DNA of 64,000 nt from Klebsiella pneumoniae (GCA_945862145.1 CAMAXE010000003.1:164139-228138), one strand, 5' to 3'. Counted from the stretch's first letter, positions 16,179 through 48,291 are shown. Translations and numbers: made by a program. The notes: generated by a model not told the origin, from the letters alone.

Positions 16179-16420
16179 GGGTGTCTGCTGCCTAGGGTGT
16201 GAAGTTGATATATAAAAACAATCAAGTCAACAAGAATTTTATTGAAGTATTTAAAGTGTAGTGTAATATTGCTTCATCGGTATTGTTTGCGTAGACTACC
16301 AAAAAATGTCGGGCAAAAGAGGCTCGCTCGGCACAGGGGCATGGCGCTACGGGGTTCAGCTCGTCAGGAGCGTAGTGCCCCGGGGGCGGTGAACAGCAGG
16401 CTGGGGACGGGAGAATCCAT
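16179..16420. promoter_or_regulatory. AT-rich divergent control region between hxlR-like and mauB-like genes
   Basis: GC dip (gttgatatataaaaacaatcaagtcaacaagaattttattgaagtatttaaagtg) with GTTGA..TCAAC inverted ends. There is an imperfect hairpin at ~16336-16383, and GGGAGAA lies before the ATG at 16421. Confidence 0.5.
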
Positions 16421-17824: not shown

Positions 17825-18348
17825 AGCATTTGCTGGATAATTGGACCGATCGTGTTACACGCGACATCGCGCGCCGTAGTTCGCGCCGTGCATTCCTGTC
17901 CCGGCTGGGCGTGTGGCTGGTAGGTGGCGCCGCCGCGCCGTTGCTGCTTCCCGTGGCCCGCGTTTATGCGAGTGCCGATGACGTGAAGCCTGCCGAGATC
18001 GGGGACCCCCTCAGCTGTGATTACTGGCGTTACTGCGCGCAGGGAGGACCGCTCTGCGGATGTTGCGGCGGCTCCTACAACCAGTGTCCGCCCGGGACCG
18101 AGCAGTCCAAGATGGCGTGGATTGGCACGTGTCTGAATCCGGCCGATAACAAGCACTACCTGATCGCCTACTACGATTGTTGCGGCAAGTCTGTCTGCCA
18201 GCATTGCACGTGCTTCCGCTTCGAGCGAGAGCAGCCGGTTTACCGTACAGGGCAGGCCAACGACGTCCACTGGTGCCAGGCGAACTCCAGCCCCGCGGTG
18301 GCGTGCACGCTGGCGATAGTGCTCGGGCCTGCGGAAAATGCGTCGTAA
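17821..18348 (+). CDS. mauA: TTQ-type amine dehydrogenase light-chain homolog
   Basis: Twin-Arg leader RRSSRRAFLSRLG. CDYWRYC..CPPGT..MAWIGTC..YLIAYYDCCG..PVYR..NDVHWC is colinear with Paracoccus MauA, and the two TTQ Trp are 51 residues apart. ATGA overlap with mauB. Confidence 0.9.
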   Translation: MKHLLDNWTDRVTRDIARRSSRRAFLSRLGVWLVGGAAAPLLLPVARVYASADDVKPAEIGDPLSCDYWRYCAQGGPLCGCCGGSYNQCPPGTEQSKMAWIGTCLNPADNKHYLIAYYDCCGKSVCQHCTCFRFEREQPVYRTGQANDVHWCQANSSPAVACTLAIVLGPAENAS

Positions 18349-24653: not shown

Positions 24654-25763
24654 ATGATCTCATTCGGCCTGACCGAAGAGCAGGAGATGATCCGCGCGTC
24701 CGTGCGTGACTTCGCGACGACGGAGTTGCGCGGCATCGCACGCCGGTGCGACGAGGCGAGCCAACTCCCCGACGCGCTGCTCGACGCGTCTTGGTCGCTC
24801 GGGCTGGTGGCCGCATCGATTCCCGAACGGATGGGTGGGGGCGGCATGCAGCGCTCGTCCGTGACGAGCGCCATCGTGGCGGAGGAACTGGCTTTCGGTG
24901 ACGCACCCTTGGCCGCTGCGGTCCTCGCGCCCTCGCTGTTCGTGAACCCGCTGCTGGACTTCGGTACCGAGGCGCAGCAGGCGGAGTACCTTCCGCTGTT
25001 CACGCAACCGCGTTTCCATGCGGCCACGCTGGCCTTGCACGAACCCACGTTCGGCTTCGAGCCGGCACGACTGCGTACGGTCGCGGAGCGGGCCGGCGGC
25101 GGCTTCCGGATCACCGGCCGCAAGCGATTTGTGCCGCTGGGCGACCGCGCGAGCCACTTCCTGGTGGTTGCCCGAGGCGAGCGAGAGGGACTCCAGGGCC
25201 TCGAGGCCTTCATCATGCCGCGCGATGCTCGAGGTCTAACCATCGCTGAGGATCGGGAGAAGACCTTGGGCTTGGAGGCGCTGCCGCTTGCAAGCCTCGA
25301 GCTCGACGGTGTCGAGGTTCCCGCGAGTGCGCGACTCGGCGGTGAGCGTGGCATCGACGGTGCGCGCCTGATCAATCAGTGCCGCATGGGCAGCGCTGCA
25401 CTTGCCGTCGGCATATCGCGCGCGATCAAGGAATTCGCGGTCGGCTACGCCAAGGAGCGAGAGGCTTTCGGCGGGCCCATCGCCCGCAAGCAGGTGATCG
25501 CGTTCCGTCTCGCCGAAATGGAGATCGAGACGAGCACGATGCGCCTGCTCGTCTGGAAAGCAGCAAGCCAACTCGGGCAGGACATGGACGCCACGCGCGC
25601 CTCGACGCTGGCCCAGACCTATGTCTGCCGTGAGGCCATGAAGATCGCGGACAACGGTATCCAGGTTCTTGGCGGTCACGGCTACATGCGCGCCTACCCG
25701 GTGGAGATGTGGTACCGGAACACGCGCGCACTCACCCTGCTCGACGGGCTCATGGCACTGTGA
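24654..25763 (+). CDS. Acyl-CoA dehydrogenase family protein (short C-terminus, LLDG at the YEG position)
   Basis: 369 aa. MISFGLTEEQEMIRASVRDF, LGGHGYMRAYPVEMWYRNTRAL. Confidence 0.88.
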   Translation: MISFGLTEEQEMIRASVRDFATTELRGIARRCDEASQLPDALLDASWSLGLVAASIPERMGGGGMQRSSVTSAIVAEELAFGDAPLAAAVLAPSLFVNPLLDFGTEAQQAEYLPLFTQPRFHAATLALHEPTFGFEPARLRTVAERAGGGFRITGRKRFVPLGDRASHFLVVARGEREGLQGLEAFIMPRDARGLTIAEDREKTLGLEALPLASLELDGVEVPASARLGGERGIDGARLINQCRMGSAALAVGISRAIKEFAVGYAKEREAFGGPIARKQVIAFRLAEMEIETSTMRLLVWKAASQLGQDMDATRASTLAQTYVCREAMKIADNGIQVLGGHGYMRAYPVEMWYRNTRALTLLDGLMAL

Positions 25764-25800
25764 TGCGCGAGCACCTGCTGGCGAGAAGGAGAACCCGGAG

Positions 25801-26961
25801 ATGATCGATTTCTCTCTCAGCGAGAACGACCAGCAAATCCTCGATGAGATCCGGCGCCAGTCGCTTGTCTGTCGCCAGTACGCCCGCTACTACGACGAGC
25901 ACGAGGATGAATACCCGCCGGACCGGCTGCCAGAGGCCGCGGATTTCCGCAATCCCTACAAGGTCGTGGAGCGGCCCGACGATCGCGACACGCCGCGCCG
26001 CGTCCTGCAGATGCTGGTGGCTGCCGGCCAGGCCTGGGGTGACTACGGCGTCATGATGCAGCGCGGCAAGAGGGCGCTCGGAAACCTCGTCGTCGATGTT
26101 GCGGGGACATCCGAGCAGCAGCAGCGCTTCGGTGGTCTGACGCTTGCGATCTCCATCACCGAGCCGGGTTGTGGCTCGGACGCGAAGACATTGCGCACCA
26201 CTGCCGTTCTGGAAGGGGACGAATGGGTGCTCAACGGCGAAAAAATCTTCGTGACCACGGGCTGCCGTTCCGACGGTGTGGTCGTCGCGGCGACGACCGA
26301 CCGCTCGGCGGGATATCGCGCCATCCATCCTTTCGTCGTGCTGAAGGGCACGCCTGGCTTCACGGTGGCCCGCCGGGAGAAGAAGCTCGGCATCCGCGCG
26401 GACGACACCGCGACCATCGTTTTCCAGAACGCCCGTATCCCGCGCGACCATCTGCTCGGTGGCGACGAAACGTCAACGGACGGGTTCAGCGCGGTGCTGG
26501 GTGCCCTCAACGCGACGCGTCCGGCCGTGGGCATCGCCGGTCTGGGGATCGCCCAGGCGGCGCTCGATTTCACGCGCGAGCAACTGGCGGCGGAGGGAAT
26601 CGCGGTAGATTGGAGCATTGGCAGGCGCTCGCGCAGTGCGATCCAGCAGGAGATGATCGAGATCGAGGCGGACATCGAGGCGGCGATGCTCGCCATGCTG
26701 TACGCGGCCTGGTTGTCCGACGGGGCGAAATGGCAGCGGCTGGAGACCACGATCGGCAAAGCCAAGAGCGGGGAGGTCGCACGCTCCGCTGTCCGGCGTT
26801 GTATGGACCTCCTCGGCGGTCTCGGAATCTCGCGTGAATATCTCGTGGAAAAGTGGCTCCGCGATGCCCGGATCACCGATCTCTACGGCGGAACCGGCGA
26901 GATCCAGCGCCTGATCATCGCGCGCGATGTTCTGGGCTATTCCGCGAAAGAGCTGTCCTGA
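25801..26961 (+). CDS. Acyl-CoA dehydrogenase family protein (LYGGTGEI at the YEGTxEI position)
   Basis: Internal ATG of ORF 25669..26961 (MIDFSLSENDQQILDEI). ITEPGCGSDA, GGLGISREYLVEKWLRDAR. Confidence 0.88.
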   Translation: MIDFSLSENDQQILDEIRRQSLVCRQYARYYDEHEDEYPPDRLPEAADFRNPYKVVERPDDRDTPRRVLQMLVAAGQAWGDYGVMMQRGKRALGNLVVDVAGTSEQQQRFGGLTLAISITEPGCGSDAKTLRTTAVLEGDEWVLNGEKIFVTTGCRSDGVVVAATTDRSAGYRAIHPFVVLKGTPGFTVARREKKLGIRADDTATIVFQNARIPRDHLLGGDETSTDGFSAVLGALNATRPAVGIAGLGIAQAALDFTREQLAAEGIAVDWSIGRRSRSAIQQEMIEIEADIEAAMLAMLYAAWLSDGAKWQRLETTIGKAKSGEVARSAVRRCMDLLGGLGISREYLVEKWLRDARITDLYGGTGEIQRLIIARDVLGYSAKELS

Positions 26962-26973
26962 GTCGAATGGTAG

Positions 26974-29352
26974 ATGCTGAGTCCCTATCGTGTCCTCGAT
27001 TTGACTGACGACAGGGGTCAGCTCGCGGGCTATATCCTCGCCCAGATGGGCGCGGACGTCATCGCTATCGAGCCAGCCGAAGGGCATCGGAGCCGGCGGC
27101 TGGGGCCTTTCCTCGCGGATCGGCGCGACGCGGAGTCTTCGCTGACGCATCTTGCTTACAACCGCGGCAAGCGTTCGGTGGTTATTGATGCGCCGGCGCA
27201 ACTCGAGCGTCTTGCTGCGACCGCCGACGTGCTCGTCGAGTGCGGTGCGATGCCAGTAGATCTCGCGCGGCTGCGCTCGCTGAACTCCTCCCTGATCACG
27301 GTGTCGATCACGCCCTTTGGCCAGACGGGTCCCAAGGCAGGTTGGGCCGCCACGGACCTAACGGTCTGCGCGGCCGCCGGAACGTTGGGTATCACGGGCG
27401 ATCCGGATCGCGCACCGTTCCGGATCTGCGTGCCGCAGGCTTTTGCATTCGCCGCGGCCGATGCCGCGTGCGCCGTACTGCTCGCCTTGTGGGAGCGCCA
27501 TCGCTCCGGGCGCGGACAGCACGCCGACATTTCGGTGCAGCACTCCTACCACTCCGCGACGCAGTTCCAGACCATGGCGGCGCTGGTCGGCAAGCCGGTC
27601 GGGAAACGCCTCGGCGGAGGTCACAAGATCGGGGCCGTCACGATGCAGGCGGTGCACGCGTGCAAGGACGGCCACGTTACGGCATCGTTCCTGTTCGGGC
27701 CGGTGTTCGGCCCGTACGCGACGCGCCTGTTCCGCTGGATACACGAGGAGGGGCACTGCAGCGAGTGGTGGCCCCTGAACGATTGGGTCTCCTTCGGGCG
27801 CGTAGTGCGCGAGGATCCCGGCGGACTCGAGAGGATGGAGGAGGGGATGACTATCCTCCGTCGTTTCCTGGCGACGAAGACCAAGCACGAACTCTTCACA
27901 GCAGCCGTCGCGCGCCGCCTGCTGATCGCGCCGGTCATGACCGCGCGGGATCTGCTGGCCTTCGAGCATCTCGAGGCGCGAGGGTGGTGGCAGGACGTGG
28001 ACGGCTTGCGGGCACCCGGAGCCTTCGTCCGGGCGCCGGCCTCGCCGCTGCGCGCCTTGGGGCGCGCCCCTCGGATCGGTGAGCACTCATCCCTGCTGGA
28101 CGAAGCGAGCCGCCCGAGCGAATCACCGCAGGCCGCCGAGAGCGGCACCGGTGGCCCGCTGCCACTGGCCGGCTTGCGCGTGCTCGACTTCACCTGGGCA
28201 CTGGCCGGACCGGGGAGCACGCGTATCCTCGCCGATCACGGCGCCTGTGTGATCCGCATCGAGTCGCAGCGAAAAATGGACATCCTGCGCGGCGCCTCGC
28301 CGTTCCTCGGCGAGGACGGCCAACCGGAGAACGCGCTGTCATGGCACTCGGCCAATGCGGGGAAGCTCGGCGTCACGCTGGATCTCGGGCACGAGCGTGC
28401 ACGGGACGTGGTGCTGGATCTCGCGCGATGGGCTGACATCGTTGTCGAGTCGTTCTCCTTCGGCACAATGGAGCGTTTTGGCATCGGCTACGACTCGCTG
28501 CGCGCGGTGAACCCTCGCCTGATCATGCTGTCGAGCTGCCTGCTGGGAGCGACGGGACCGCTGCGTGCCTATGCGGGCTTCGGCGGCGCGGGTGCCGCGG
28601 TAGCGGGGTTCTATGCGCTCGCCGGCTGGCCCGATCGACTGCCGGCCGGTCCTTACGGGGCGTACTCGGACTACACGTCGCCGCGCTTCATGGTGGCGGC
28701 GCTGATGGGCGCTCTGGAATGGCGGCGCCGCACCGGTGAGGGCCAGCATCTGGATTTCGCGCAGATGGAAGGCGCGGTGCAGATGATCGCGCCGGTCCTG
28801 CTCGACATGGCGGCGAACGGACACGCCATCGAGCGTTGCGGAAACGAGGATCCGCACATGTCGCCGCACGGCGTGTACCCCGCAAGGGGCGACGATCGCT
28901 GGATCGCCGTTACCTGCGAGACCGACGCGCAGTGGCGCATGCTTGCGCGCGTGATCGATCGTGTCGATCTCGCCAGCCTGGACCTCGGGGCAAGGCTCAC
29001 CCGGCGTCGCGAGCTCGACGAGGCGGTTACGGCGTGGACGCGCGAGCGGGATGTTGCGGAAGCCGAACGGTTGTTGCAGGCCGCAGGCGTGCCCTCGCAT
29101 CGCATCGCCTACGCCGAGGACATCCTTGCCGACGCACAACTCGCGCACCGTCGACACTGGCAGCGTGTGCCACACCCCGAGCACGGCGAGACCTGGGCGG
29201 AAGGTCCTGCCATACAATTGGCACGCACGCCCGGCGCACCGCGCTGGGGTGGGCCGACTTTCGGGCAACATCTGCAGGAGGTGCTTGCGGAGGTCCTCGG
29301 CTACGAGGCGGACAAGATCGCCGATCTCATCGGTTCGGGCGCATTCGAGTAG
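26974..29352 (+). CDS. Tandem two-domain family III CoA-transferase fusion, paralog of 20035..22446
   Basis: 792 aa. Colinear with the 803-aa fusion at roughly two-thirds identity by eye. The second domain starts at LPLAGLRVLDFTWALAGPG. Confidence 0.9.
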   Translation: MLSPYRVLDLTDDRGQLAGYILAQMGADVIAIEPAEGHRSRRLGPFLADRRDAESSLTHLAYNRGKRSVVIDAPAQLERLAATADVLVECGAMPVDLARLRSLNSSLITVSITPFGQTGPKAGWAATDLTVCAAAGTLGITGDPDRAPFRICVPQAFAFAAADAACAVLLALWERHRSGRGQHADISVQHSYHSATQFQTMAALVGKPVGKRLGGGHKIGAVTMQAVHACKDGHVTASFLFGPVFGPYATRLFRWIHEEGHCSEWWPLNDWVSFGRVVREDPGGLERMEEGMTILRRFLATKTKHELFTAAVARRLLIAPVMTARDLLAFEHLEARGWWQDVDGLRAPGAFVRAPASPLRALGRAPRIGEHSSLLDEASRPSESPQAAESGTGGPLPLAGLRVLDFTWALAGPGSTRILADHGACVIRIESQRKMDILRGASPFLGEDGQPENALSWHSANAGKLGVTLDLGHERARDVVLDLARWADIVVESFSFGTMERFGIGYDSLRAVNPRLIMLSSCLLGATGPLRAYAGFGGAGAAVAGFYALAGWPDRLPAGPYGAYSDYTSPRFMVAALMGALEWRRRTGEGQHLDFAQMEGAVQMIAPVLLDMAANGHAIERCGNEDPHMSPHGVYPARGDDRWIAVTCETDAQWRMLARVIDRVDLASLDLGARLTRRRELDEAVTAWTRERDVAEAERLLQAAGVPSHRIAYAEDILADAQLAHRRHWQRVPHPEHGETWAEGPAIQLARTPGAPRWGGPTFGQHLQEVLAEVLGYEADKIADLIGSGAFE

Positions 29353-29381: not shown

Positions 29382-29843
29382 TCAGTTCACCGCCTGCCTC
29401 AAGGCCGCCATCACAACCTCCGGGTCGGCGTCCACGTCGAATCGTGTCCAGTCCAGGATTTCCTGACGCCTGGTGAACTTCCACTGGCCTGCGATCTTCT
29501 CCAGCTTGTCCTCCAGGCGACCAATAGCCAACAGCATGGGTGGATTCACCAGGAGGTAACCGGAGAAGTAGCACCGCATCGTCGCATGAGTCTCGTCCCC
29601 GTCGATGGCGATCGCCGTGGGCATGTGACGCATCGGTGCGGGAAGTTTCTGCGGGAACTGGAAGCAATCCACGAAGTCGCGGAGATCCTTGCGGCCTCTG
29701 ATCGTCTCGCCGCCGGGTGTCTCGAACACACCGTCGTCGGCAAAGCAAGCTACCCAGCCCTCCGGGTCGCCCAGATCGAACGTGTGGCAGTAACGCGCGG
29801 CGAGTTCCATGATCTCAGCGCGATCTTCGGGGGAAACAGACAT
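29382..29843 (-). CDS. SnoaL-like / NTF2-fold protein
   Basis: The start MSVSPEDRAEIMELAARYCHTFD is preceded by AAGGAGAG. 153 aa. Confidence 0.75.
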   Translation of the reverse strand: MSVSPEDRAEIMELAARYCHTFDLGDPEGWVACFADDGVFETPGGETIRGRKDLRDFVDCFQFPQKLPAPMRHMPTAIAIDGDETHATMRCYFSGYLLVNPPMLLAIGRLEDKLEKIAGQWKFTRRQEILDWTRFDVDADPEVVMAALRQAVN

Positions 29844-29966
29844 CGTACTCTCCTTCATTCGTGTGGATAAATGCACGGGGAGAGCTCGCGTAGGCGCGAT
29901 GCTCCCGGGTTCTGCCCGTCGGGCGTGGGTGGACGGGTGCGGGCTTCACCCGGAAGCGCTGCCCGG

Positions 29967-30899
29967 TCAGATCGCGCCCTCCGACAGCCAGTTGTCGCTG
30001 GGCCGGCCGGCGATGCAGCCGAGCGACGCGCTCGAGCGATAGCCCAGCAATTGCTGGGTGCGTTCGGGCAACGTGCGAGCGATCGAGGGCGGCACCGCCA
30101 GGTACTGGTTCTCTTCGGTGACGAGCCAGTTAACGCTCAGCGTGATGATGATCCCCGTGCGCGGTTCATCGGTATGGTTGGCACCGGCGCCGTGCAGCAG
30201 GCCACCCAGCCAGAACACGACGGATCCCTTCGGCATCTCGGCCTGCGCGACCTCGTTCTCCTCGGCCTCCCGTTGCTGCTCCCAGCGGTGGCTACCCGGC
30301 ACCAGCCGGGTCGCGCCGTTGTCGCGGGTGAAATCGGTACCCGCCCAGTTGCACGCGAGGATGCATTCGGGGCGGCGCGGATCATGCTCCAGGAAGGGGC
30401 GGTAAATGTCCGTCTCGCGGTGCAGTGGCTGGTTCGTCCCGCCCTTGCAGACCTGCAGTGCAGCATGCGCGTTCACCCGATAGTGATGACAATGAGGTCG
30501 CGAGCCTGCTTCCCGGGGGCGGTTCAAATTTACATAGATATCGGACCAGTCCGCGGGCGAGCCGGGCAGAGCCGCAGAGGGCGACGCCATCGGGCACTCG
30601 GGTTGTAGTATGGCGTCAGCGACCTCGAGCCAGAACCGGTTCAGCAACAGGTAGTCGCTGAACTCGCTCCCGCGGGTCAGCACCCGGCCGAGTGCCTTGA
30701 CCTTGCTTTCCTGGCCCGTGAAATAATCGACCCCGGGGCTCATCTGCTCGAACGCAGGTTGGAGTTTCGCGGTCAGCGTGTCCATCAGCTCCGGTGCGAG
30801 CAGCCCGCGCACGATGACCGCACCCTCCTCGCGAAGCACCGCGGCGACATCCGCTAGGCTGCCATTCGCGTCGAATGCACAGATGGGCGCGCCAGGCAC
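29967..30899 (-). CDS. Phytanoyl-CoA dioxygenase (PhyH) family Fe(II)/2-oxoglutarate oxygenase
   Basis: This is the C-terminal 310 codons of the chimeric 684-aa ORF 29967..32021. It carries PhyH-like segments (GATRLVPGSHRW, SVVFWLGGLLHGAGANHTD). The proposed GTG start lies 2 nt after the TAA stop of the upstream ACAD. No internal ATG lies near the N-terminus. Confidence 0.75.
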   Translation of the reverse strand: MPGAPICAFDANGSLADVAAVLREEGAVIVRGLLAPELMDTLTAKLQPAFEQMSPGVDYFTGQESKVKALGRVLTRGSEFSDYLLLNRFWLEVADAILQPECPMASPSAALPGSPADWSDIYVNLNRPREAGSRPHCHHYRVNAHAALQVCKGGTNQPLHRETDIYRPFLEHDPRRPECILACNWAGTDFTRDNGATRLVPGSHRWEQQREAEENEVAQAEMPKGSVVFWLGGLLHGAGANHTDEPRTGIIITLSVNWLVTEENQYLAVPPSIARTLPERTQQLLGYRSSASLGCIAGRPSDNWLSEGAI

Positions 30900-30901: not shown

Positions 30902-32164
30902 TTATGCTGTCCGAGTTGGCGCGCTGCGGAGCTCGCGAAAGGACTTGCCCTTGTCGACACGCGGTTCTGGTGGGAGCCCGAGCACACGTTCGGCGATGAT
31001 GTTGCGCAGGATCTCGTCGGTTCCCCCGGCGATGCGGATCGCGGGGGCCACGAGGTAGGCCCACTGCCACTGCGCGTAGGCTGCGGCGCCGTCCTCGTCG
31101 GCGATCGCACCGCTGCCTTCGAGCAGTTCCAGCGCGAGCGAGGTCATTTCCTGCTGCAGCCGTCCCTCGACGAGCTTGCCGATCGACGCCTCGCCGCCGG
31201 GTTCCTGTCCGCGCGAGAGCGCGGTGAGCATCCGGTAGGAGGTATGGACGAGCCCCCTCCAGCGGACGTGGAAATCCGCGACGCGCTCGCGCACGGTCGC
31301 TTCGTCGAGCGCGCTGCGATTTCCGGTGATCCGCGTGTTCCTGGCAAGGCGCATGAAGTCCAGGGCTGTAGGAAGACGTTCGCCGCCGGGACCCACCACG
31401 CCCCCGGCGGCCGACGCACGCTCGGTCATCAGCGTGCTGGTCGTCACGGTCCATCCGTTCCCGACCGAGGAGATACGGTGCGCGTCGGGAATGCGCACCT
31501 CGTTGAGGAATACCGCGCTGAAATCTGCGCTGCCCCATATTTGCCTGATCGGCCGGATCTCGATTCCCGGCGTCTTCATGTCGAGCACGAAGTACGTCAG
31601 CCCGGCGTGCTTGGGCACGTCCGGATCGCTGCGCGCGATCAGTATCGCCCAGTCCGAATGCTCCGCCAAGGAAGTCCAGACCTTCTGGCCGCTCACGAGC
31701 CAGTGATCGCCATCGCGAACTGCGCGGGTGCGCAATCCGGCCAGGTCCGAGCCGGCATCGGGCTCGCTGAAGAGCTGGCACCAGACTTCCTCGCCGCGGA
31801 TCATCTTCGGCAACCAGCGGGTCTTCTGTTCCGGCGTGCCGTGAATCATCAGTGTGGGGCCGGCCTGCCCGTGGGCGATGTTGAAGATGTTCGGCGGCAG
31901 ATCGAAGCGGGATTCCTCCTGCGCCCAGATCAGGCTCTCGATCGCGCTCGCGCCCCGGCCTCCGTACTCCCTGGGCCAGCTGATGCACGCCCATCCGGCA
32001 TCCGCCTTGCGCGTCTGCCATTCCTTGCTGGATTCGAGGCTCGCCTTGCCCTCGGCCGAAAACCCCCAGCCGCTCTCTCCTGCACGCAACGTCGCGTTCG
32101 CCGAGAGCCAGGCGCGTGCCTCGGTGCGGAACGCGGCTTCGGTCGGGGTATCGTCGAAATCCAT
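30902..32164 (-). CDS. Acyl-CoA dehydrogenase (FadE-like; RIAGGTDEILRNIIAERVLGLP C-terminus)
   Basis: Internal ATG of ORF 30902..32281 (MDFDDTPTEAAFRTEARAWL). FSEPDAGSDLAG motif. Confidence 0.9.
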   Translation of the reverse strand: MDFDDTPTEAAFRTEARAWLSANATLRAGESGWGFSAEGKASLESSKEWQTRKADAGWACISWPREYGGRGASAIESLIWAQEESRFDLPPNIFNIAHGQAGPTLMIHGTPEQKTRWLPKMIRGEEVWCQLFSEPDAGSDLAGLRTRAVRDGDHWLVSGQKVWTSLAEHSDWAILIARSDPDVPKHAGLTYFVLDMKTPGIEIRPIRQIWGSADFSAVFLNEVRIPDAHRISSVGNGWTVTTSTLMTERASAAGGVVGPGGERLPTALDFMRLARNTRITGNRSALDEATVRERVADFHVRWRGLVHTSYRMLTALSRGQEPGGEASIGKLVEGRLQQEMTSLALELLEGSGAIADEDGAAAYAQWQWAYLVAPAIRIAGGTDEILRNIIAERVLGLPPEPRVDKGKSFRELRSAPTRTA

Positions 32165-32202: not shown

Positions 32203-32982
32203 TCAGAGATGCTGGGTCAGGCCGCCGTCGAGGTGGAAGATCTGACCTGTCACATAGCCCGCGCCTGTGCCGGAAAGCCACACGGCCATGGGGCCGATGT
32301 CGTCGGGACGGCCCGCGCGCTTCAGGATAGCGAAGCGCACGGCTCGTGCCGCCTCCACGTCATCCGGATCGATGCGATCGCTCATCCAGTCCATCCATCC
32401 GAGCGCAATCGCGTTCACCGTGATGCCATCCGGCCCAAGCTCCCGCCCCAAGCTGCGTACGAGGTTCTGTGTCGCGGCGTGGGCGGCTCCGTAGGCGGCG
32501 GTATTGGGCAGGCCACGCTCGCCGAGCACGTGCGTGAGTAACAGAATACGCCCGCAGTTGTCGCCTGCGCGCATTTCGCGCACGGCCGCCCGGACGGCAG
32601 CGAACGGCAGGCCGAAGTTCATCGCCATGACGAGGCCGAGATCCTCGTCGCTAGTCTCAGCGATCGGCTTTGCAAAAAAGACATCGGGACAAACGGCCAG
32701 GACATCCAGGCCACCCAGTGCAGCGGCCGCGCTCCGCACCGCGTCGTCCGGGTGACCGGGTGAGGACAGACCCGCGGCAAGCAGCGTGCAGCGGGTACCC
32801 GTCGACTCGATCTCCCGGCGCAGCGCATCGACTGATTCGCTGTGCTCGTGAACGCAAATGACCAGATCTGCACCGGCTTCCGCGTAGGCGCGGGCGACAG
32901 CACTGCCACCGGGGGTTTCGGCGCCCAGCACCACGGCCTTGCGATTGCGCAGGTCAAAGTGCTCCAAGCCTGCGTTAGTCAT
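32203..32982 (-). CDS. SDR-fold protein with degenerate cofactor and catalytic motifs
   Basis: Start MTNAGLEHF. The glycine motif reads VLGAETPGGS instead of TGxxxGxG, and the active site reads YGAAH (YxxxH) instead of YxxxK. ATGA overlap with the upstream SDR. Confidence 0.8.
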   Translation of the reverse strand: MTNAGLEHFDLRNRKAVVLGAETPGGSAVARAYAEAGADLVICVHEHSESVDALRREIESTGTRCTLLAAGLSSPGHPDDAVRSAAAALGGLDVLAVCPDVFFAKPIAETSDEDLGLVMAMNFGLPFAAVRAAVREMRAGDNCGRILLLTHVLGERGLPNTAAYGAAHAATQNLVRSLGRELGPDGITVNAIALGWMDWMSDRIDPDDVEAARAVRFAILKRAGRPDDIGPMAVWLSGTGAGYVTGQIFHLDGGLTQHL

Positions 32983-33797
32983 CCTGTGGGCTCCTGCGGC
33001 AGTTCCCGGCGAGGCGCGAAGTCCACCGGACCGAGCGCACCCGCCAGTGCGCCACCGTCGATGATAAAAGTTGCACCCGTCACGAAGCTGGAGGCGTCCG
33101 ACGCAAGGTAGACGGCAAGCGGCCCCAGTTCCCAGCACTCGCCGAGCCGGCGCACGGGCATTCTGCGCGCCACGCTCATGCGGGCTTCGGCCTCCCGCTC
33201 GTCCCGCGGAGGGGCCTGCGGCACCACGCCAGGCACGATCACGTTGACCCGGATTCCATGCGGACCGAGGATCGTCGCCTGCGACGTCGTGAGCGACAGG
33301 ATGCCTCCCTTGGCCGAGGGATACGCGAATATCGCGCCGCCGCGCAGCGCAGTGACGGAGGACAGGTTGATAATCACTCCACCGCGCTTGCTCGCGATCA
33401 TCTGGCGGGCGGCTTCGCGACCGCAATAGAACGCGCTGTGAAGGTTCAGTTCGAGCGCGCGCTGGAATTCTTCGTCGGCGTACTCCCAGAACGGATCGTG
33501 CGATGTTCCGGCGCCCGCGTTGGCAATCATGATGTCGATGCTGCCGTAGGCGTCCACACAGGCGGACACCAGCGCATTCACCTGGGCCGAATCCGTTACG
33601 TCAGTTCTCGTGGCAATCGCCTGGCCCCCAGAGGCGACGATTTCGGCCACGGTGCCGTCTATCTCTTCAGGGGTGCGTGCTGCACAGACGACACGCGCGC
33701 CGGCCTGCGCGAGCGCCAGTGCCATGGCCTTTCCTAGTCCCCGTCCGGCCCCCGTGACGACGGCGGCACGTCCGTCTAGCCTCAGTTTCTCGAGCAT
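32979..33797 (-). CDS. Classical SDR-family oxidoreductase
   Basis: VVTGAGRGLGKA (TGxxxGxG) and YPSAK (YxxxK). 272 aa. Confidence 0.9.
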   Translation of the reverse strand: MLEKLRLDGRAAVVTGAGRGLGKAMALALAQAGARVVCAARTPEEIDGTVAEIVASGGQAIATRTDVTDSAQVNALVSACVDAYGSIDIMIANAGAGTSHDPFWEYADEEFQRALELNLHSAFYCGREAARQMIASKRGGVIINLSSVTALRGGAIFAYPSAKGGILSLTTSQATILGPHGIRVNVIVPGVVPQAPPRDEREAEARMSVARRMPVRRLGECWELGPLAVYLASDASSFVTGATFIIDGGALAGALGPVDFAPRRELPQEPTG

Positions 33798-33894: not shown

Positions 33895-34731
33895 TCAGCG
33901 CCCCGTAAACTTTGGCTTGCGCTTTTCCTGGAAAGCCTTGAAGGCCTCCGCGGCGTCCTCGCTTCGCAGTGAGCCTGCCTCGAGCGCGATCGTCAGTGGG
34001 AGGACGAGGTTGGAGACGAATTTCTGGAACTTGTTTATGCCCATCTTGGATGCGGAGATGGCGACTCCCGGACCGGCAGCAAGGCGGTCGGCGAGATCCA
34101 GGGCCGTCTTCATCAGCTGATCGTCGTCGACGACAAAATTGACCAAGCCGAGTCTTTCCGCTTCGTCCGCCGACAGAATGTCCCCGGTCATCATGTAGTA
34201 CTTGGCGCGATTGATGCCCATCAGGAGGGGCCACAGCACCTGCCCGCCGTCGCCGGCGCCCATCGCGAGGCGCACGTGCGTATCGCCGATCCGTGCGCTG
34301 CGACCGGCGATGACGATGTCACCGAGCAATGCGATGGTCGAACCCATACCGATCGCCGGACCGTTGACTGCGGTGATGATCGGTGTCTCGCAGTCGAGGA
34401 AGTCATCGACGAGGCGGCGCCCTTCGCGCCAGGCAGCGCCGGGCGAGCGGTCGCGCTCGACCTCCATATCGCCCGGGTCGAATTCCATGGCGTCGCCGCC
34501 GGCGCAGAATGCGCGGCCCGCGCCCGTGATGACCAGCACCTTGACTGCCGGATCCTCGTCGATGTCGCGTGCGAGGGACAGGATCTCGTGATGCATGCTC
34601 GGGATAACGGCGTTCAGCCGGTCGGGTCTGTTGAGCGTCGCCACCACGACCCCGTTCGGGCGCTTGTCGATGAGGATCGAGCTGTAGTCTTCCTGCTTGA
34701 GCTCGTGTTCGTAAAAAGCGTTCTTGGGCAT
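33895..34731 (-). CDS. Crotonase-fold protein, paralog A (most divergent; 278 aa)
   Basis: MPKNAFYEHELKQEDY.. and oxyanion-hole region FCAGGD. The catalytic-Glu positions read GMGST and GDTHV. Confidence 0.88.
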   Translation of the reverse strand: MPKNAFYEHELKQEDYSSILIDKRPNGVVVATLNRPDRLNAVIPSMHHEILSLARDIDEDPAVKVLVITGAGRAFCAGGDAMEFDPGDMEVERDRSPGAAWREGRRLVDDFLDCETPIITAVNGPAIGMGSTIALLGDIVIAGRSARIGDTHVRLAMGAGDGGQVLWPLLMGINRAKYYMMTGDILSADEAERLGLVNFVVDDDQLMKTALDLADRLAAGPGVAISASKMGINKFQKFVSNLVLPLTIALEAGSLRSEDAAEAFKAFQEKRKPKFTGR

Positions 34732-34816
34732 GGCATTGTCCTTTCGAGTATCGATGCGTCAGGCATGCGGATCGCGCTGAGCTTCCCTGCTCCTCGGGCG
34801 CGCGCAGGGTTCCGCT

Positions 34817-35632
34817 TCAACGGCCCTTGAACTTGGGTGGGCGCTTTTCGCGGAAGGCGTTGATCGCTTCCTCGGCGTCTTCAGTGTGCAGCGTGGCGTA
34901 CTGGAGCTTCAGCGTGAGCGGGAGCACCAGGTTCGAGACGAACTTGATGTATTTGTTGATGCCCATCTTGGAGGCCGAGATCGCGACGGCCGGTCCGCTC
35001 GCCAGGCGGTCGGCCAGGTCCATGGCCGTCTTCATCAACTGGTCGTCGTCGACGACGAAGTTCACGAGGCCCAGCCGTTCGGCTTCCTCTGCGCCGAGAA
35101 CGTCGCCGGTCATCATGTAGTACTTCGCGCGGTTGATGCCCATCAGCAGCGGCCAGTAGAGCTGCCCACCGTCGCCGGCGCCCACGCCGATCTTGACGTG
35201 CGTGTCCCCGATGGTGGCGCTGCGCCCGGCGATGATCACGTCGCCGAGCAGGGCGATGGTCGCGCCCAGGCCCATGGCGGGGCCGTTCATCGCCGTGATG
35301 ATCGGCTTCTCGCAGTCGAGGATGTCGTCGACCAGTTGCCGCGCCTGGCGCCAGATGCGCGGTCCGGAGAAGCGCGGACGCCCCGGGCTGAAGTCGCCCC
35401 CGGCGCAGAAGGCGCGTCCGGCGCCCGTGAGCACCAGCACCTTTACGTCCGGGTCCTCGTCGACGTCGCGCGCGAGCGAGGTGACCTCGAGGTGCATGTT
35501 GGGGTCAATGGCATTCATCTTTTTGGGCTGGTTGAGCGTCGCCACGGCCACGCCGTTGGGGTGTTTCTCGATCAGGATCTGATCGTAGTTCTCCTGCTTC
35601 AGCGAGTGCTCATAGAAAGCGTTCTTGGGCAT
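34817..35632 (-). CDS. Crotonase-fold protein, paralog B (271 aa)
   Basis: MPKNAFYEHSLKQENY.. About 80% identical by eye to paralogs C and D. GLGAT and GDTHV at the catalytic-Glu positions. Confidence 0.88.
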   Translation of the reverse strand: MPKNAFYEHSLKQENYDQILIEKHPNGVAVATLNQPKKMNAIDPNMHLEVTSLARDVDEDPDVKVLVLTGAGRAFCAGGDFSPGRPRFSGPRIWRQARQLVDDILDCEKPIITAMNGPAMGLGATIALLGDVIIAGRSATIGDTHVKIGVGAGDGGQLYWPLLMGINRAKYYMMTGDVLGAEEAERLGLVNFVVDDDQLMKTAMDLADRLASGPAVAISASKMGINKYIKFVSNLVLPLTLKLQYATLHTEDAEEAINAFREKRPPKFKGR

Positions 35633-35692
35633 GTCGATTCACCTTTGCGAATGGTTTTTTGGCCTGTACCTGACGCAGCGTCCGTCCCGCGA

Positions 35693-36508
35693 TCAGCGGC
35701 CTTTGAAGTTCGGCTTCCGCTTCTCCCGGAATGCGGCGGTCGCCTCTTCGGCGTCCTCGGTGTAGAGCGTGGCCCGCTGGAGGTTGATTGTGAGCGGGAG
35801 CACCAGGTTCGAGACGAACTTGATGTATTTGTTGATCCCGATCTTGGAGGCCGAGATCGCGAGGCCAGGGCCGCTCGCGAGGCGATCGGCCAGTTCCAGG
35901 GCCTTGATCATCAACTGGTCGTCGTCGACGACGAAGTTGACAAGGCCGAGTCGCTCCGCCTCTTCGGCCGTGAGCACCTCCCCGGTCATCATGTAGTACT
36001 TGGCGCGATTGATGCCCATCAGCAGCGGCCAGTAGACTTGGCCGCCGTCCCCGCAGCCCGAACCCACCTTGACGTGCGTGTCGCCGATCTTCGCGCTGCG
36101 TGCCGCGATGATCACGTCGCCGAGCAGGGCGATGGTCGCGCCGAGACCCATCGCCGCGCCGTTCATGGCTGTGATGATCGGCTTCTCGCAATCGAGAAAG
36201 TCGTCGACCAGCTGGCGTCCCTCGCGGAAGATGCGGGGGCCGGAGTGTCGGGGGCGGTTCGGACTGAAATCGCCGCCGGCGCAGAAGGCGCGTCCGGCGC
36301 CCGTAAGTACCAGCACCTTCACGTCCGGGTCCTCATCGACGTCGCGCGCGAGCGAGGTGATCTCGAGGTGCATGTTGGGATCGACAGCGTTCATCTTGTG
36401 GGGCTGGTTGAGTGTCGCCACGACCACCCCGTTCGGGTGTTTCTCGATCAGGATCTGGTCGTAGTTTTCCTGCTTCAATTCGTGCTCGTAGAAAGCGTTC
36501 TTTGGCAT
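35693..36508 (-). CDS. Crotonase-fold protein, paralog C (271 aa)
   Basis: MPKNAFYEHELKQENY.., GLGAT and GDTHV. Confidence 0.88.
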   Translation of the reverse strand: MPKNAFYEHELKQENYDQILIEKHPNGVVVATLNQPHKMNAVDPNMHLEITSLARDVDEDPDVKVLVLTGAGRAFCAGGDFSPNRPRHSGPRIFREGRQLVDDFLDCEKPIITAMNGAAMGLGATIALLGDVIIAARSAKIGDTHVKVGSGCGDGGQVYWPLLMGINRAKYYMMTGEVLTAEEAERLGLVNFVVDDDQLMIKALELADRLASGPGLAISASKIGINKYIKFVSNLVLPLTINLQRATLYTEDAEEATAAFREKRKPNFKGR

Positions 36509-36574
36509 AGTTCGTTTCCTCTGGTGGTCTGATTCCGGGGATGACGCGGTGTGGCGTCGATTGCGGCGCTGGTT

Positions 36575-37390
36575 TCACTTGCCCTGGTACTTCGGCGGAC
36601 GCTTGTCGCGGAAGGCGTTGATCGCTTCCTCGGCGTCCTCGGTGTACAGCGTGGCCGACTGCAGCTTCAGCGTGAGCGGGAGCACCAGGTTCGACACGAA
36701 CTTGATGTACTTGTTGATCCCGATTTTTGACGCGGATATCGCAACGCCCGGACCGCTGGCTAGCCGATCGGCGAGAGCCATGGCCGTCTTCATGAGCTGG
36801 TCGTCATCGACTACGAAGTTCACCAGGCCGAGCTGTTCTGCCTTCTCGGCGGTGATTACGTCGCCGGTCATCATGTAGTACTTCGCGCGGTTGATGCCCA
36901 TCAGCAGTGGCCAGTAGACCTGCCCGCCGTCGCCGGCGCCCATGGCAACCTTCACGTGCGTGTCCCCCATCGTTGCGCTGCGCCCCGCAATGATCACGTC
37001 GCCGAGCAGGGCGATGGTCAGTCCCAGGCCCATGGCGGGGCCGTTCATCGCGGTGATGATCGGCTTCTCGCAGTCGAGGAAGTCATCGACCAACTGGCGC
37101 GCCTCGCGCCAGATGCGCGGTCCGGAGAAGCGCGGGCGCCCCGGGCTGAAGTCGCCGCCTGCGCAAAAGGCGCGTCCAGCGCCCGTAAGCACCAGCACCT
37201 TGACGTCCGGGTCTTCCTCCATATCGCGGGCAAGGGCGGTGACCTCGAGATGCATGTTGGGATCGATAGCGTTCAGCTTGTGAGGTTGGTTGAGCGTTGC
37301 AACGGCCACCCCGTTGGGATGCTTCTCGATCAGGATCTGGTCGTAGTTTTCCTGCTTGAGTTCGTGCTCGTAGAAGGCGTTCTTGGGCAT
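36575..37390 (-). CDS. Crotonase-fold protein, paralog D (271 aa)
   Basis: MPKNAFYEHELKQENY.., GLGLT and GDTHV. First gene of the minus-strand operon. Confidence 0.88.
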   Translation of the reverse strand: MPKNAFYEHELKQENYDQILIEKHPNGVAVATLNQPHKLNAIDPNMHLEVTALARDMEEDPDVKVLVLTGAGRAFCAGGDFSPGRPRFSGPRIWREARQLVDDFLDCEKPIITAMNGPAMGLGLTIALLGDVIIAGRSATMGDTHVKVAMGAGDGGQVYWPLLMGINRAKYYMMTGDVITAEKAEQLGLVNFVVDDDQLMKTAMALADRLASGPGVAISASKIGINKYIKFVSNLVLPLTLKLQSATLYTEDAEEAINAFRDKRPPKYQGK

Positions 37391-37962: not shown

Positions 37963-38277
37963 ATGGCTATATGGCGAATCCACGAATTCCAGCCCCTCCG
38001 GGACCGTTGGGAGGATTGCATCAAGCGGGCAGTCGAGAACAAGAAGTACTTCGACAGCATTGGTGTCAAATCAAGATGCTTCCGCGCCGAGGATGGCGGG
38101 CCAGCCATCCATATGACGTTCATCACCGAGGTCGAAGACTGGATTCAGCAAGGCAGGATGATGCACAGGTGCGAATCTGATCCGGAGTATGCGCGCATGT
38201 TCGCCGAGGGGCTCGCAGATTCTGTTCACGAGAACTATTCGGCGCGCACCGTGATCGAAGTGCCGCTGATCTACTAG
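37963..38277 (+). CDS. Small hypothetical protein (104 aa)
   Basis: Strong SD (GAGGGAG) 6 nt upstream of the ATG. No family was recognised with confidence; possibly a ferredoxin-like alpha+beta fold. Lower GC than its surroundings. Confidence 0.6.
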   Translation: MAIWRIHEFQPLRDRWEDCIKRAVENKKYFDSIGVKSRCFRAEDGGPAIHMTFITEVEDWIQQGRMMHRCESDPEYARMFAEGLADSVHENYSARTVIEVPLIY

Positions 38278-46143: not shown

Positions 46144-48291
46144 GTGTATCGGGGCCAGAGCATCCGCGTACAGGCAATCGACGAAGGTTTCGTCGAGCTG
46201 ATTTTCGATCGCCAGGGCGACGCCATCAACAAGCTCGACGCCCGCACCATGCGCGAACTCGGTGAGGCTACTGCCGCCATCGCCGTCGCCCCTGGGGTGC
46301 GTGGCGTGCTGGTCACCAGCGCCAAGAGCGTTTTCATCGTCGGTGCTGACATCACCGAGTTCGGCGAGCTGTTCAGGCTGCCGATCGAAGAACTTGCTGT
46401 CGAATTTGCCAATTCCAACAAGGTACATTCTGCCTTCGAAGATCTGCCGGTGCCTACCGTTATTGCGATCAACGGCTATGCGCTGGGTGGCGGGTTGGAG
46501 ATGGCGCTTGCGGCGAGCTTGCGCGTCATGTCCACCCGGGCCCAGATCGGTCTGCCCGAGGTCAAGCTGGGCTTGTTTCCGGGCGGCGGTGGCACCGTTC
46601 GCCTGCCACGCGTGGCCGGGGCACAGGTAGCGAGTGAATGGATTGCAAGCGGTAGGTCTGCTGGCGCGCCGGAGGCGTTGGCGGCAGGCGTAGTGGATGA
46701 GTTGGCCGAGCCTGAGCAGTTGCGCGCTGTCGCCCTGTCCCTGCTGCGCAAGGCGGCCACGGGTGAGATTGACTGGAAGGCACGTCAGTCCCGCAAACTG
46801 GCTGCATTGACGCAACCCGCCGCCGAGCTCTCCACGCTGTTCGCTGCAGCGAAGGCCCGGGCCGCCAAGGGCAGCGGCAAGCATCAGCCCGCAGCGCTCG
46901 CGGCCGTCGAACTGATGGAGCGTGCCGCAGGTCTGGATCGTACCGCAGCATTAGCCGAAGAAAACCGGGTTTTTGCGCAGATCGCCAAGACCCAGGCAGC
47001 CAGCGCCATGGTGCAAACATTCCTCAGTGAGCAGGTTCTGAAAAAGTTGCTGAAGCAACATGCCAAGGTGGCGCGCCCCCTACGACAGGGCGCTGTGCTC
47101 GGCGCCGGTATCATGGGCGGCGGTATTGCCTATACCAGCGCGCAGCGCGGCACGCCCGTGCGGCTGAAGGACGTCGTTCAGGCCCAGCTTGACCTGGGCA
47201 CCGGCGAGGCCAGGAAGCAGCTCGCCAAGCTGGTGAAGAACGGGCGCATGAACCAGGAGAAGGCAGACGCCATCCTGGCCTCCATCGTGCCCCAGCTCGA
47301 CTACGCCGGATTTGACGGTGTCGACGTCGTGATCGAGGCGGTGGTGGAAAACCTCGGCGTGAAGCACAAGGTCCTGGCCGAGGTGGAAAGCACTGTGCGA
47401 TGCGACACCGTGATTGCTTCGAACACATCCAGCCTTCGCATCGACGACATCGCGGCGCCGCTGGCGCGTCCGGAGAACTTCGTAGGCATGCACTTCTTCA
47501 ACCCGGTGCCCGTGATGCAGCTGGTGGAAGTGATTCAGGGCAGCAAGACCAGCGACGCGGCCGTCGCAACGGCCGTGGGCTACGCGGCGGCAATGGGCAA
47601 GACGCCTATCGTCGTGAAGGACTGTCCTGGCTTCCTGGTGAATCGCGTCCTGACTGCGTATATGCGCGGTTTCCTGCAACTGGTCGTCGATGGCGCGGAC
47701 TTCGCGATGGTCGATCAGGTGATGGAGTCCTTCGGCTGGCCGATGGGGCCTGCGTATCTGGAAGACGTGATCGGCATCGACACCGGCGCGCATGTCAACG
47801 ACATCATCTCGGCCGGCTACGCTGAGCGCATGCCCCACATGGAACTCGACGCCCTGCGCCTCATGGCTCAGAACAAGCGATACGGTCAGAAGAATGGCAT
47901 AGGTTTCTACAAGTACGAGACCGACCCGAACGGCAAGCCCAGGCGCAGCGACGCCGAAGACACCCGTACGCTGCTAGCCACGATCCAGCCAAACGGCATG
48001 CGTCAGTTCAGCGATCAGGAAATCATCGACCGCATGATGCTCCCGCTGATCATCGAGGCCGCGCATGCGCTCGAAGACGGCGTGGTGGCGAGCGCGGCAG
48101 AACTGGACATGGCCCTGCTGCTGGGGATCGGCTTCCCCGCTTACCTGGGAGGCGCGCTGAAGTACGCGGACTGGCTGGGTCTGCCCGAGGTCAATGCCCG
48201 TGCTGCACGCTATGCGCGACTCGGCAAGGCGTATGAGGCGACCGCCCGCATGCACGAAATGGCTGCGAAGGGGCAGCGCTATTACGCTTGA
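46144..48291 (+). CDS. fadB: Multifunctional fatty-acid oxidation alpha subunit (enoyl-CoA hydratase / 3-hydroxyacyl-CoA dehydrogenase)
   Basis: 715 aa. N-terminal crotonase domain with canonical GGGLE and PE(V)KLG glutamates. NAD motif GAGIMGGGIA. C-terminal 3HCDH domains. Confidence 0.93.
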   Translation: MYRGQSIRVQAIDEGFVELIFDRQGDAINKLDARTMRELGEATAAIAVAPGVRGVLVTSAKSVFIVGADITEFGELFRLPIEELAVEFANSNKVHSAFEDLPVPTVIAINGYALGGGLEMALAASLRVMSTRAQIGLPEVKLGLFPGGGGTVRLPRVAGAQVASEWIASGRSAGAPEALAAGVVDELAEPEQLRAVALSLLRKAATGEIDWKARQSRKLAALTQPAAELSTLFAAAKARAAKGSGKHQPAALAAVELMERAAGLDRTAALAEENRVFAQIAKTQAASAMVQTFLSEQVLKKLLKQHAKVARPLRQGAVLGAGIMGGGIAYTSAQRGTPVRLKDVVQAQLDLGTGEARKQLAKLVKNGRMNQEKADAILASIVPQLDYAGFDGVDVVIEAVVENLGVKHKVLAEVESTVRCDTVIASNTSSLRIDDIAAPLARPENFVGMHFFNPVPVMQLVEVIQGSKTSDAAVATAVGYAAAMGKTPIVVKDCPGFLVNRVLTAYMRGFLQLVVDGADFAMVDQVMESFGWPMGPAYLEDVIGIDTGAHVNDIISAGYAERMPHMELDALRLMAQNKRYGQKNGIGFYKYETDPNGKPRRSDAEDTRTLLATIQPNGMRQFSDQEIIDRMMLPLIIEAAHALEDGVVASAAELDMALLLGIGFPAYLGGALKYADWLGLPEVNARAARYARLGKAYEATARMHEMAAKGQRYYA

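Follow-up and report, generated by a model that had tools for sequence, protein, structure and literature searches.

The mycobacterial EchA15 structure 3q1t was described in 2013 (PMC3584854) as a crotonase-fold protein without counterparts of Glu144 and Glu164, the two catalytic glutamates of enoyl-CoA hydratase (ECH), Val126 and His146 being found in their places. In that work the predicted site of 3q1t, consisting of D155, H146, E244 and H44, was seen to overlay the catalytic D153, H144, E243 and H43 of the beta-diketone hydrolase of Anabaena (ABDH), its hydratase annotation was judged to be probably wrong and a beta-diketone hydrolase was predicted instead. The loss of the glutamates in this branch of the crotonases is already published, for the solved homolog closest to the proteins considered here. 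In the current analysis we have examined four tandem crotonase-fold genes, referred to as paralogs A to D, in a stretch of 64,000 nucleotides recorded under Klebsiella pneumoniae (GCA_945862145.1, CAMAXE010000003.1:164139-228138). The whole of this stretch is called the window and all positions are counted from its first letter. The four proteins very probably belong to the EchA15-like branch. They are of two types, named after the residue found at a C-terminal position predicted to be catalytic: A is of the Glu type, and B, C and D are of the Gln type.

The four-gene array

The genes of the array are co-directional on the minus strand and are, in the order of transcription, paralog D (36575-37390), paralog C (35693-36508) and paralog B (34817-35632), which are Gln-type crotonases of 271 aa each, followed by the final gene, paralog A (33895-34731), a Glu-type crotonase of 278 aa. 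Neighbouring genes are separated by gaps of 60-85 bp. All four proteins start with MPKNAFYEH.LKQE.Y and match the Pfam family ECH_1 over the full length (E-values of 1e-44 to 1e-52, 152-178 bits), in agreement with the first-pass annotation of this DNA, which had recognised four head-to-tail crotonase-fold genes of 278, 271, 271 and 271 aa with a common start. Its estimates of identity were too low: B, C and D had been put at about 80% identity to each other and A at about 70% identity to them, and the measured values at the protein level are 86-90% and 74-76% respectively.

The open reading frames (ORFs) of the array have the codon-position GC pattern typical of genuine genes (the GC content of the window is 64%). 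The identical four-copy array with the same neighbours is present in the independent metagenome assemblies L005 and L006, and is therefore not an assembly artefact. No terminator-like site was found on the minus strand inside the array, which is compatible with a single transcript and in itself proves nothing; promoter-like and terminator-like sites at the locus were not above the shuffled expectation. Neither inverted repeats upstream nor an Rfam match were found. A plus-strand ORF of 548 aa (34886-36532) is antisense to B and C, and most of the genes have comparable long ORFs opposite them; these long antisense ORFs do not have the GC3 pattern of genuine genes and are artefacts of the high GC content.

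Hydratase glutamates and the predicted active site

Of the features that mark a canonical ECH (EC 4.2.1.17), the crotonase fold and the oxyanion-hole motifs are present in A to D and the Glu144/Glu164 pair is absent. The absence was established by gapped alignment with MAFFT L-INS-i of the four proteins, rat ECH (a query identical to PDB 9rgq, which covers 1dub/2dub), the crotonase domain of the FadB encoded in the window and the aligned parts of 3q1t and 1wz8. Between the glycine of the oxyanion hole and the second catalytic site there are no gaps. In all four paralogs the column of rat Glu144 is occupied by Thr and that of Glu164 by His, the latter within an invariant G-D-T-H motif. The first-pass annotation had arrived at the His within GDTH by an ungapped alignment and had allowed that a gapped one might bring back a Glu; none is restored at either position. 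It had also proposed Thr at the Glu144 site with Ser in paralog A. The Thr is found in all four, and the Ser of A falls one column earlier, at the column of Cys143. The FadB-type multifunctional enzyme (46144-48291, plus strand), a comparator that lies outside the array system, keeps both catalytic glutamates, as had been noted earlier. By these defining residues, checked and found missing, A to D are not canonical enoyl-CoA hydratases.

Paralog B aligns with 3q1t with almost no gaps in the core, the chain index of 3q1t being its PDB numbering plus 4, as checked at eight residues. The site residues of 3q1t map to His47, Asp143, His145 and Asp154 in B to D and to His47, Asp150, His152 and Asp161 in A. 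The equivalent of Glu244 of 3q1t is position 244 in B to D, where it is Gln, and position 251 in A, where it is Glu. The residue set of the EchA15-like proteins, comprising D-x-H at the Glu164 site, an Asp nine residues further on, an N-terminal His and a C-terminal Glu, is complete in A and ends in Gln in the other three. In paralog D the corresponding residues are His47, Thr125 at the Glu144 site, Asp143, His145 at the Glu164 site, Asp154 and Gln244. The codons of the site in paralog A are at 34591-34593 (His47), 34336-34338 (Thr132), 34282-34284 (Asp150), 34276-34278 (His152) and 34249-34251 (Asp161), and that of His145 in paralog B is at 35198-35200.

When the 36 residues of the catalytic loop of paralog B (IGDTHVKIGVGAGDGG...) were used as a query of the complete set of PDB sequences (E-values up to 10), ten sequences were matched: three of EchA15, 1wz8, 3rrv, two entries of 6-oxocamphor hydrolase (OCH), two chains of ABDH and one marginal match, 4jyl (E-value 0.13), which is annotated as an enoyl-CoA hydratase. 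The loop alignment is ungapped; it places the His of the window proteins at residue 145 of OCH and, by spacing, the Asp at residue 154. In ABDH the two fall at chain residues 154 and 163; a tag of ten residues precedes the sequence, and these correspond to His144 and Asp153. A dyad of His145 and Asp154 in OCH, and a role of its His122, were reportedly described by Leonard and Grogan in 2004. The putative equivalents of His43 and Glu243 of ABDH were mapped indirectly, from the window proteins to 3q1t by sequence and from 3q1t to ABDH by the published structural alignment (PMC3584854). OCH and ABDH match the full-length proteins A to D with E-values of about 1e-27 to 1e-29, and the alignment with OCH ends at residue 239, the C-terminal region being not alignable by sequence.

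The N-terminal region behaves differently in the search of the PDB. A query of 60 N-terminal residues matched only crotonases that act on CoA esters (DmdD, EchA8, PaaG, HCHL and MenB), and none of OCH, ABDH and EchA15 was matched by it. The canonical N-terminal motifs LNRP...NA and FxAGGD are present in A to D, and the C-terminal motif F.EKR.P.F of CoA-dependent crotonases is kept in the MAFFT alignment. With an N-terminus of the CoA type and a loop of the diketone-hydrolase type, the window proteins combine, as far as can be read from sequence, a CoA-type binding framework with a diketone-hydrolase-type catalytic loop. A non-hydratase chemistry, which the first-pass annotation had thought plausible, is supported as the better reading by the missing glutamates and the loop matches.

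Glu-type and Gln-type proteins

Conservation was followed in an alignment of 139 sequences, made up of the window proteins, the array proteins of related loci and the 120 best database matches. Asp131, Asp143, Thr144, His145, Asp154, Gly155 and Trp160 are invariant (139/139) and His47 is kept in 138 of the 139 homologs. Position 244 is Glu in 110/139 and Gln in 29/139, the Gln being confined to proteins of 271/272 aa that bear the N-terminal extension. In the window the codon at this site is GAG in A (33979-33981) and CAG in B (34901-34903), C (35777-35779) and D (36659-36661), which is a difference of one base.

In a bootstrapped neighbour-joining tree the 278-aa proteins form a Glu-type clade (support 93) that is sister to a clade of 271/272-aa proteins, the support of which is 89 with one sequence left out. 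Both the array clades are nested against a large single-copy family of 260-265 aa with Glu. The two array clades differ by fixed substitutions at ten positions, among which only the change from Glu to Gln is derived on the side of the Gln type. The rest sit for the most part in the loop that follows the GGD oxyanion motif; the 278-aa type has 7 more residues in this loop, which is modelled there with low confidence. The 272-aa protein P0014 lies within the 271/272-aa clade and retains Glu, and hence the Gln substitution arose after the duplication or reverted once. The alignment and the tree resolve the four paralogs not into four equivalents but into one Glu-type gene and one expanded Gln-type gene. 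In the literature searched we have found no description of the Glu/Gln-type pairing, of the lineage-variable expansion of the Gln type, of the N-terminal extension or of the conserved operon.

Family placement and fold

The NCBIfam model that scores highest with A to D is the uncharacterised subfamily PRK07327 (242-257 bits), which is ahead by about 55-75 bits. No model of BadI, BadK or MenB is among the best 25 of the roughly 70 NCBIfam families matched, and structures of MenB match A to D weakly and in the N-terminal region only. The closest solved relatives detected by phmmer are the mycobacterial EchA15 entries 3q1t, 7m3w and 3qk8 (E-value about 1e-54) and also 1wz8 from Thermus, all of which are structural-genomics proteins.

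The AlphaFold (AF2) model of paralog A has a mean predicted local distance difference test score (pLDDT) of 90.9. In a Foldseek search with this model the EchA15-type structures come at the top, with template-modelling (TM) scores of 0.85-0.90, a root-mean-square deviation (rmsd) of 3.1 A and 34-35% identity, and canonical hydratases follow with TM scores of about 0.70 and rmsd of about 18 A. The best 50 of 1,257 matches with E <= 0.001 are all (50/50) of the crotonase superfamily. The C-terminal helices of the model are presumably folded back on their own subunit in the manner of EchA15 and not swapped onto a neighbour. By best matches and shared residues A to D are placed in the EchA15-like branch, and we are confident in this placement and in the active site as assigned above. 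A composite active site shared between different paralogs was also considered and is judged unlikely, the helix that carries Glu or Gln being predicted to superpose on that of EchA15-type structures and not on that of canonical ECH.

Copy number, age and selection

Related loci were located by exact-protein look-ups. Each of them has exactly one gene of the 278-aa type and one to three copies of 271/272 aa, so that the total ranges from 2 to 4 genes; the comparison of copy number between relatives had been proposed in the first-pass annotation. A single 272-aa copy, with Glu, accompanies the 278-aa type in L019, a metagenome-assembled genome (MAG) of Rhodospirillaceae. Two 271/272-aa copies are present in L008-L011, in L012, where the 278-aa-type gene is called as 268 aa, and in L013 of Pseudohaliea, where the genes are split over two sites. 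Three copies are seen in the window, L005 and L006. A scan of contigs with the alignment of the four paralogs also detected at least four distant loci with identities of 33-57%. Lineage-specific duplicates are found in L012 (L012_1/2) and L013 (L013_1/3), each with a bootstrap of 100. Paralog C of the window clusters with the L012 pair (bootstrap 88) and B clusters with D (72).

Among B, C and D the synonymous divergence (dS) is 0.57-0.74 and the ratio of non-synonymous to synonymous divergence (dN/dS) is 0.10-0.14; between A and these three, dS is about 1.0 and dN/dS is 0.17-0.18. All four copies are under purifying selection, with dN/dS of 0.10-0.18. Recent amplification or gene conversion is rejected by the dS values and by the lack of long identical tracts. 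The earlier view that the array is old and maintained is borne out by dS, by dN/dS and by the orthologs of both subtypes in other lineages. Of the 49 sites variable among B, C and D, 15 are among the 55 positions within five residues of the predicted catalytic positions and 34 among the 216 positions elsewhere, an enrichment of about twofold (one-sided Fisher p = 0.04). They include positions lying between His145 and Asp154 and the flanks of Gln244. The differences appear to lean toward the predicted catalytic residues, which is suggestive and not strong.

The module is rearranged in L013 (Pseudohaliea sp., GCA_040217025.1, 10001-19430), where one Gln-type gene remains with two short-chain dehydrogenases/reductases (SDRs), and the second Gln-type gene and the Glu-type gene are 7 kb off, adjoining an acyl-CoA dehydrogenase (ACAD), with a pyrroloquinoline quinone (PQQ) dehydrogenase and a cytochrome c between the two sites. 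Strict adjacency of the two types is hence not required. The L012 contig (GCA_050247955.1), labelled as Dehalococcoidia, encodes at 1-1213 a plug domain of a TonB-dependent receptor, which is an outer-membrane feature. This contig may be mis-binned, or the island may have been transferred, and the taxonomic labels of these MAGs are not to be relied on at this locus.

Proposed function of the array

It is most likely that A to D would perform a CoA-ester-linked hydrolytic or ring-opening step and not canonical hydration. A particular mechanism, in which A would cleave a C-C bond by a His-Asp dyad and the Gln-type proteins would serve a partner step, is put forward tentatively as a possible form of this step. 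In the branch the Glu/Glu pair of ECH is replaced by a dyad of His at the Glu164 site and Asp nine residues on, backed by the N-terminal His and by Glu on the long C-terminal helix, which corresponds, by the mapping given above, to the set of the retro-Claisen beta-diketone hydrolases OCH and ABDH. Binding of CoA thioesters would be retained, since the canonical motifs LNRP...NA and FxAGGD are kept in the N-terminal region. The SDRs would make a beta-dicarbonyl on an acyl-CoA; in the Glu-type protein the dyad would activate water and cleave the C-C bond by a retro-Claisen route, leading to ring opening or chain cleavage, and the Glu would handle the proton of the carbanion. Such a step would be analogous in logic to the ring opening by BadI, Oah or EchA20, with OCH-like residues. 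The array is an old two-component set of one Glu-type gene with the full residue set and one Gln-type gene, in which a single G-to-C change in the codon has replaced the Glu and which has expanded here to the three copies B, C and D. These copies would carry out, for various related substrates, a partner step that does not depend on the Glu and may be hydration, isomerisation or substrate capture.

A further elaboration of this mechanism is doubtful. It would regard the Gln-type copies as natural Glu-to-Gln variants of a C-C hydrolase that halt at, or redirect, a reaction intermediate and are obligate partners of the Glu-type enzyme, possibly as stacked trimers; the whole would be a system of half-reaction plus full-reaction, diversified for CoA-dependent ring-opening or chain-cleaving of marine isoprenoid or alicyclic compounds.

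Several points weigh against the hydrolytic mechanism. OCH and ABDH are CoA-independent while A to D look CoA-dependent, and the chemistry may differ. The equivalent of OCH His122, at the column of rat Gly141 in the MAFFT alignment, is Leu or Met in the window proteins. None of the paralogs, at 242-257 bits, reaches the cut-off of 292 bits of PRK07327. The label of beta-diketone hydrolase for 3q1t (PMC3584854) is a computational prediction only. No paper testing the function of EchA15/Rv2679 was found in the literature search. Lastly, the context of ACAD and SDRs is equally suited to an ordinary hydration step.

This last point leads to the alternative that survives best, although we consider it unlikely, namely that the proteins are atypical enoyl-CoA hydratases in which the His-Asp dyad has taken over from Glu-Glu as the water-activating base, in a beta-oxidation-like cycle of ACAD and SDRs for bulky branched or alicyclic substrates. 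In such a cycle ACAD would make the enoyl-CoA and the SDRs would oxidise the 3-hydroxyacyl-CoA. The conserved order of crotonase, SDR, SDR and ACAD, the retained canonical CoA-binding motifs, the full-length match to ECH_1 and the abundance of ACADs and CoA-transferases in the island, with a thiolase, are in keeping with it. The absence of both catalytic glutamates from 139/139 relatives argues against it, as do the matches of the loop, which are confined, bar the marginal 4jyl (E-value 0.13), to beta-diketone hydrolases and uncharacterised EchA15-like proteins. The window already has a canonical hydratase in FadB, and the fixed dichotomy of Glu and Gln would be left unexplained.

The dichotomy could also be read, by analogy with PaaF-PaaG, to mean that only A works and that the Gln-type copies are catalytically impaired partner subunits, either pseudoenzymes or scaffolds, with their trimers stacked on the Glu-type trimer. 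Non-catalytic crotonases are known, EchA6 of mycobacteria being one, and two crotonase paralogs co-crystallise in PDB 4fzw, which has chains of PaaF and PaaG. The 278-aa copy co-occurs with 271/272-aa copies at every locus examined, and the change from Glu to Gln is conservative and isosteric at a position listed as catalytic in ABDH (PMC3584854). We regard this reading as improbable: the remaining catalytic residues are strictly kept in the Gln-type copies, with dN/dS of about 0.1, the 272-aa partner in L019 retains Glu, and it is hard to see why a mere scaffold would be kept in three divergent copies.

The dyad and, by the indirect mapping, probably also the N-terminal His and the C-terminal Glu are shared with OCH and ABDH, which match the full-length proteins with E-values of about 1e-27 to 1e-29. 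A strictly OCH/ABDH-like, CoA-independent hydrolysis of free cyclic diketones, supplied by the monooxygenases of the island, a PQQ alcohol dehydrogenase and the SDRs, might be imagined on this ground, since the island encodes a Baeyer-Villiger-type monooxygenase, a luciferase-like monooxygenase, an esterase and the PQQ alcohol dehydrogenase. It is very unlikely, as the matches of the N-terminal region are to CoA-ester crotonases, with neither OCH nor ABDH among them, the proteins have retained F.EKR.P.F, a motif of CoA-dependent crotonases, the alignment with OCH does not extend past residue 239 and the immediate partners are ACAD and CoA-transferases.

Simple gene-dosage amplification of one enzyme into functionally undifferentiated copies, to which the range of one to three 271/272-aa copies across lineages and the lineage-specific duplicates (L012_1/2 and L013_1/3, bootstrap 100) would lend themselves, is the least credible reading in view of the old divergence between the copies (dS 0.57-0.74), the clustering of C with the copies of another lineage and not with B and D, the lean of the differences toward predicted catalytic residues and the ancient, fixed split between A and B-D.

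Operon and catabolic island

Directly downstream of A is an SDR oxidoreductase of 272 aa (32979-33797, minus strand), which is found beside the array in all related loci. It is followed on the same strand by a second SDR of about 259 aa (32203-32982, minus strand), the start of which, deduced from the L005 ortholog, overlaps with the stop codon of the preceding SDR, and by an ACAD of 420 aa (30902-32164, minus strand), a conserved partner of the array. Next are a PhyH-family Fe(II)/2-oxoglutarate dioxygenase of about 310 aa (29967-30899, minus strand), present in the lineage of the window and in L012 and absent from L008/L009 and L019, and a SnoaL_4 (NTF2-like) protein (29382-29876, minus strand) that recurs near the array in related loci. 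The array is always accompanied by two SDRs and an ACAD, and the operon partners are conserved in five other lineages. Convergent with the operon is the gene of a 792-aa protein with two family III CoA-transferase domains (26974-29352, plus strand), which is kept with the array in L005, L008/L009, L012, L013 and L019. A second fused protein of this kind, of about 800 aa, is encoded at 20035-22446 on the plus strand. Family III includes the alpha-methylacyl-CoA racemases, and both the double CoA-transferases may be racemases or transferases for branched acyl-CoAs.

Upstream of the array and divergent from it are genes of a conserved 104-aa protein, a transporter of the major facilitator superfamily, a TonB-dependent receptor and a PQQ alcohol dehydrogenase. 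The 104-aa ORF (37963-38277, plus strand) has a good codon bias and is present at the same place, with 104 aa, in L005; no match to Pfam or NCBIfam was found for it. This small protein could have an accessory or regulatory role in the operon.

More widely, the window forms a catabolic island, which includes five more family III CoA-transferase genes and five more ACADs. It also encodes a Baeyer-Villiger-type monooxygenase, a luciferase-like monooxygenase, an esterase, an aldehyde dehydrogenase, a thiolase, a MaoC-type hydratase, FadB and a nitronate-monooxygenase-like protein, and much of it recurs alongside the array in other lineages. A block at 13748-18348, comprising the Baeyer-Villiger-type monooxygenase, an HxlR regulator and methylamine-dehydrogenase-like heavy and light chain genes, is also found beside the crotonase operon in the Rhodospirillaceae MAG (L019, 14461-18637). 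As this block travels with the operon there, the island in its entirety appears to be a catabolic unit that is mobile or widely shared. In the stretches 24654-26961 (plus strand) and 23195-24433 (minus strand), two adjacent ACAD genes, of 369 aa and about 386 aa, adjoin a double hot-dog hydratase (FAS1_DH_region), an arrangement reminiscent of the heteromeric pairs of ACAD and MaoC-type hydratase in the degradation of steroid or branched side chains. Among the neighbours the only NCBIfam match above the cut-off is that of the first SDR to glucose 1-dehydrogenase PRK07231 (219.5 against 215 bits); as all other matches are below the cut-off and this one is to a generic SDR subfamily, the name of a pathway is not transferable. 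The flagellar export genes fliR, flhB and flhA follow the island (56350-60767, plus strand), and the window is hence chromosomal and not of a plasmid or phage. A plasmid origin was also considered and rejected, there being no megablast match for the array in PLSDB.

Comparison with known systems

The proteins most similar to those of the array are the EchA15 relatives (3q1t, 3qk8, 7m3w and 1wz8 of Thermus; PRK07327), which share the D-x-H, the Asp nine residues on, the N-terminal His and the C-terminal Glu, and have the same arrangement of the C-terminal helix as that predicted in the model of paralog A. The window proteins differ from them in having GDTH where the relatives have DGH, Thr in place of Val or Ala at the Glu144 site, an extended N-terminus (MPKNAFYEH...) and an LNxPxxxNA motif nearer to the canonical form, in scoring under the cut-off of PRK07327 and in being arranged as a tandem set of Glu and Gln types. 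Of the environmental and mycobacterial members of this branch, thousands bear the annotation of enoyl-CoA hydratase though they are without the hydratase residues. The array unites one Glu-type copy with three of the Gln type in an operon that is compact and conserved and has defined partner enzymes. It is a natural experiment that could serve to assign the chemistry of the EchA15-like proteins and to correct a widespread misannotation, and could show how the replacement of a catalytic Glu by Gln comes to be tolerated and indeed amplified. The array is in addition a marker of a conserved catabolic island, which several uncultured lineages of marine and soil origin have in common.

The step catalysed by OCH follows that of an alcohol dehydrogenase, which parallels the adjacent SDRs here. 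OCH (1o8u/1szo) and ABDH (2j5g/2j5s) have in common with the window proteins the crotonase fold and a His-Asp dyad in register, and the N-terminal His and C-terminal Glu are probably equivalent, by way of 3q1t (PMC3584854). They differ in being CoA-independent, whereas the window proteins keep CoA-type motifs, do not have the His122 of OCH and, in three of the four paralogs, have Gln in place of the catalytic Glu. Canonical ECH (rat, 1dub/2dub, and the N-terminal domain of FadB) shares the fold, the oxyanion-hole motifs and the full-length ECH_1 match; it differs at Glu144, which is replaced by Thr, at Glu164, which is replaced by His, and, by the model, in a C-terminal domain that would be oriented otherwise (rmsd about 18 A).

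The cyclohexanecarboxyl-CoA pathway of BadK, BadH, BadI and AliB employs an ACAD, a crotonase hydratase, an SDR and a second crotonase that opens the ring by hydrolysis of a beta-ketoacyl-CoA. Its two types of crotonases with SDRs and ACAD parallel the gene content of the window, as a functional analogy; BadI is a MenB-type crotonase and its catalytic residues differ from those of the window proteins. PaaF and PaaG (4fzw) are likewise crotonase paralogs encoded side by side, which serve consecutive steps and form a hetero-complex. In the alignment PaaG is also without the Glu pair and has an Asp in the same loop, an Asp that has a catalytic role in PaaG, and it differs in having no His at the Glu164 site. 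Set beside these systems, the array is, by its residue content, a Glu-type/Gln-type variant within the known and uncharacterised EchA15-like branch.

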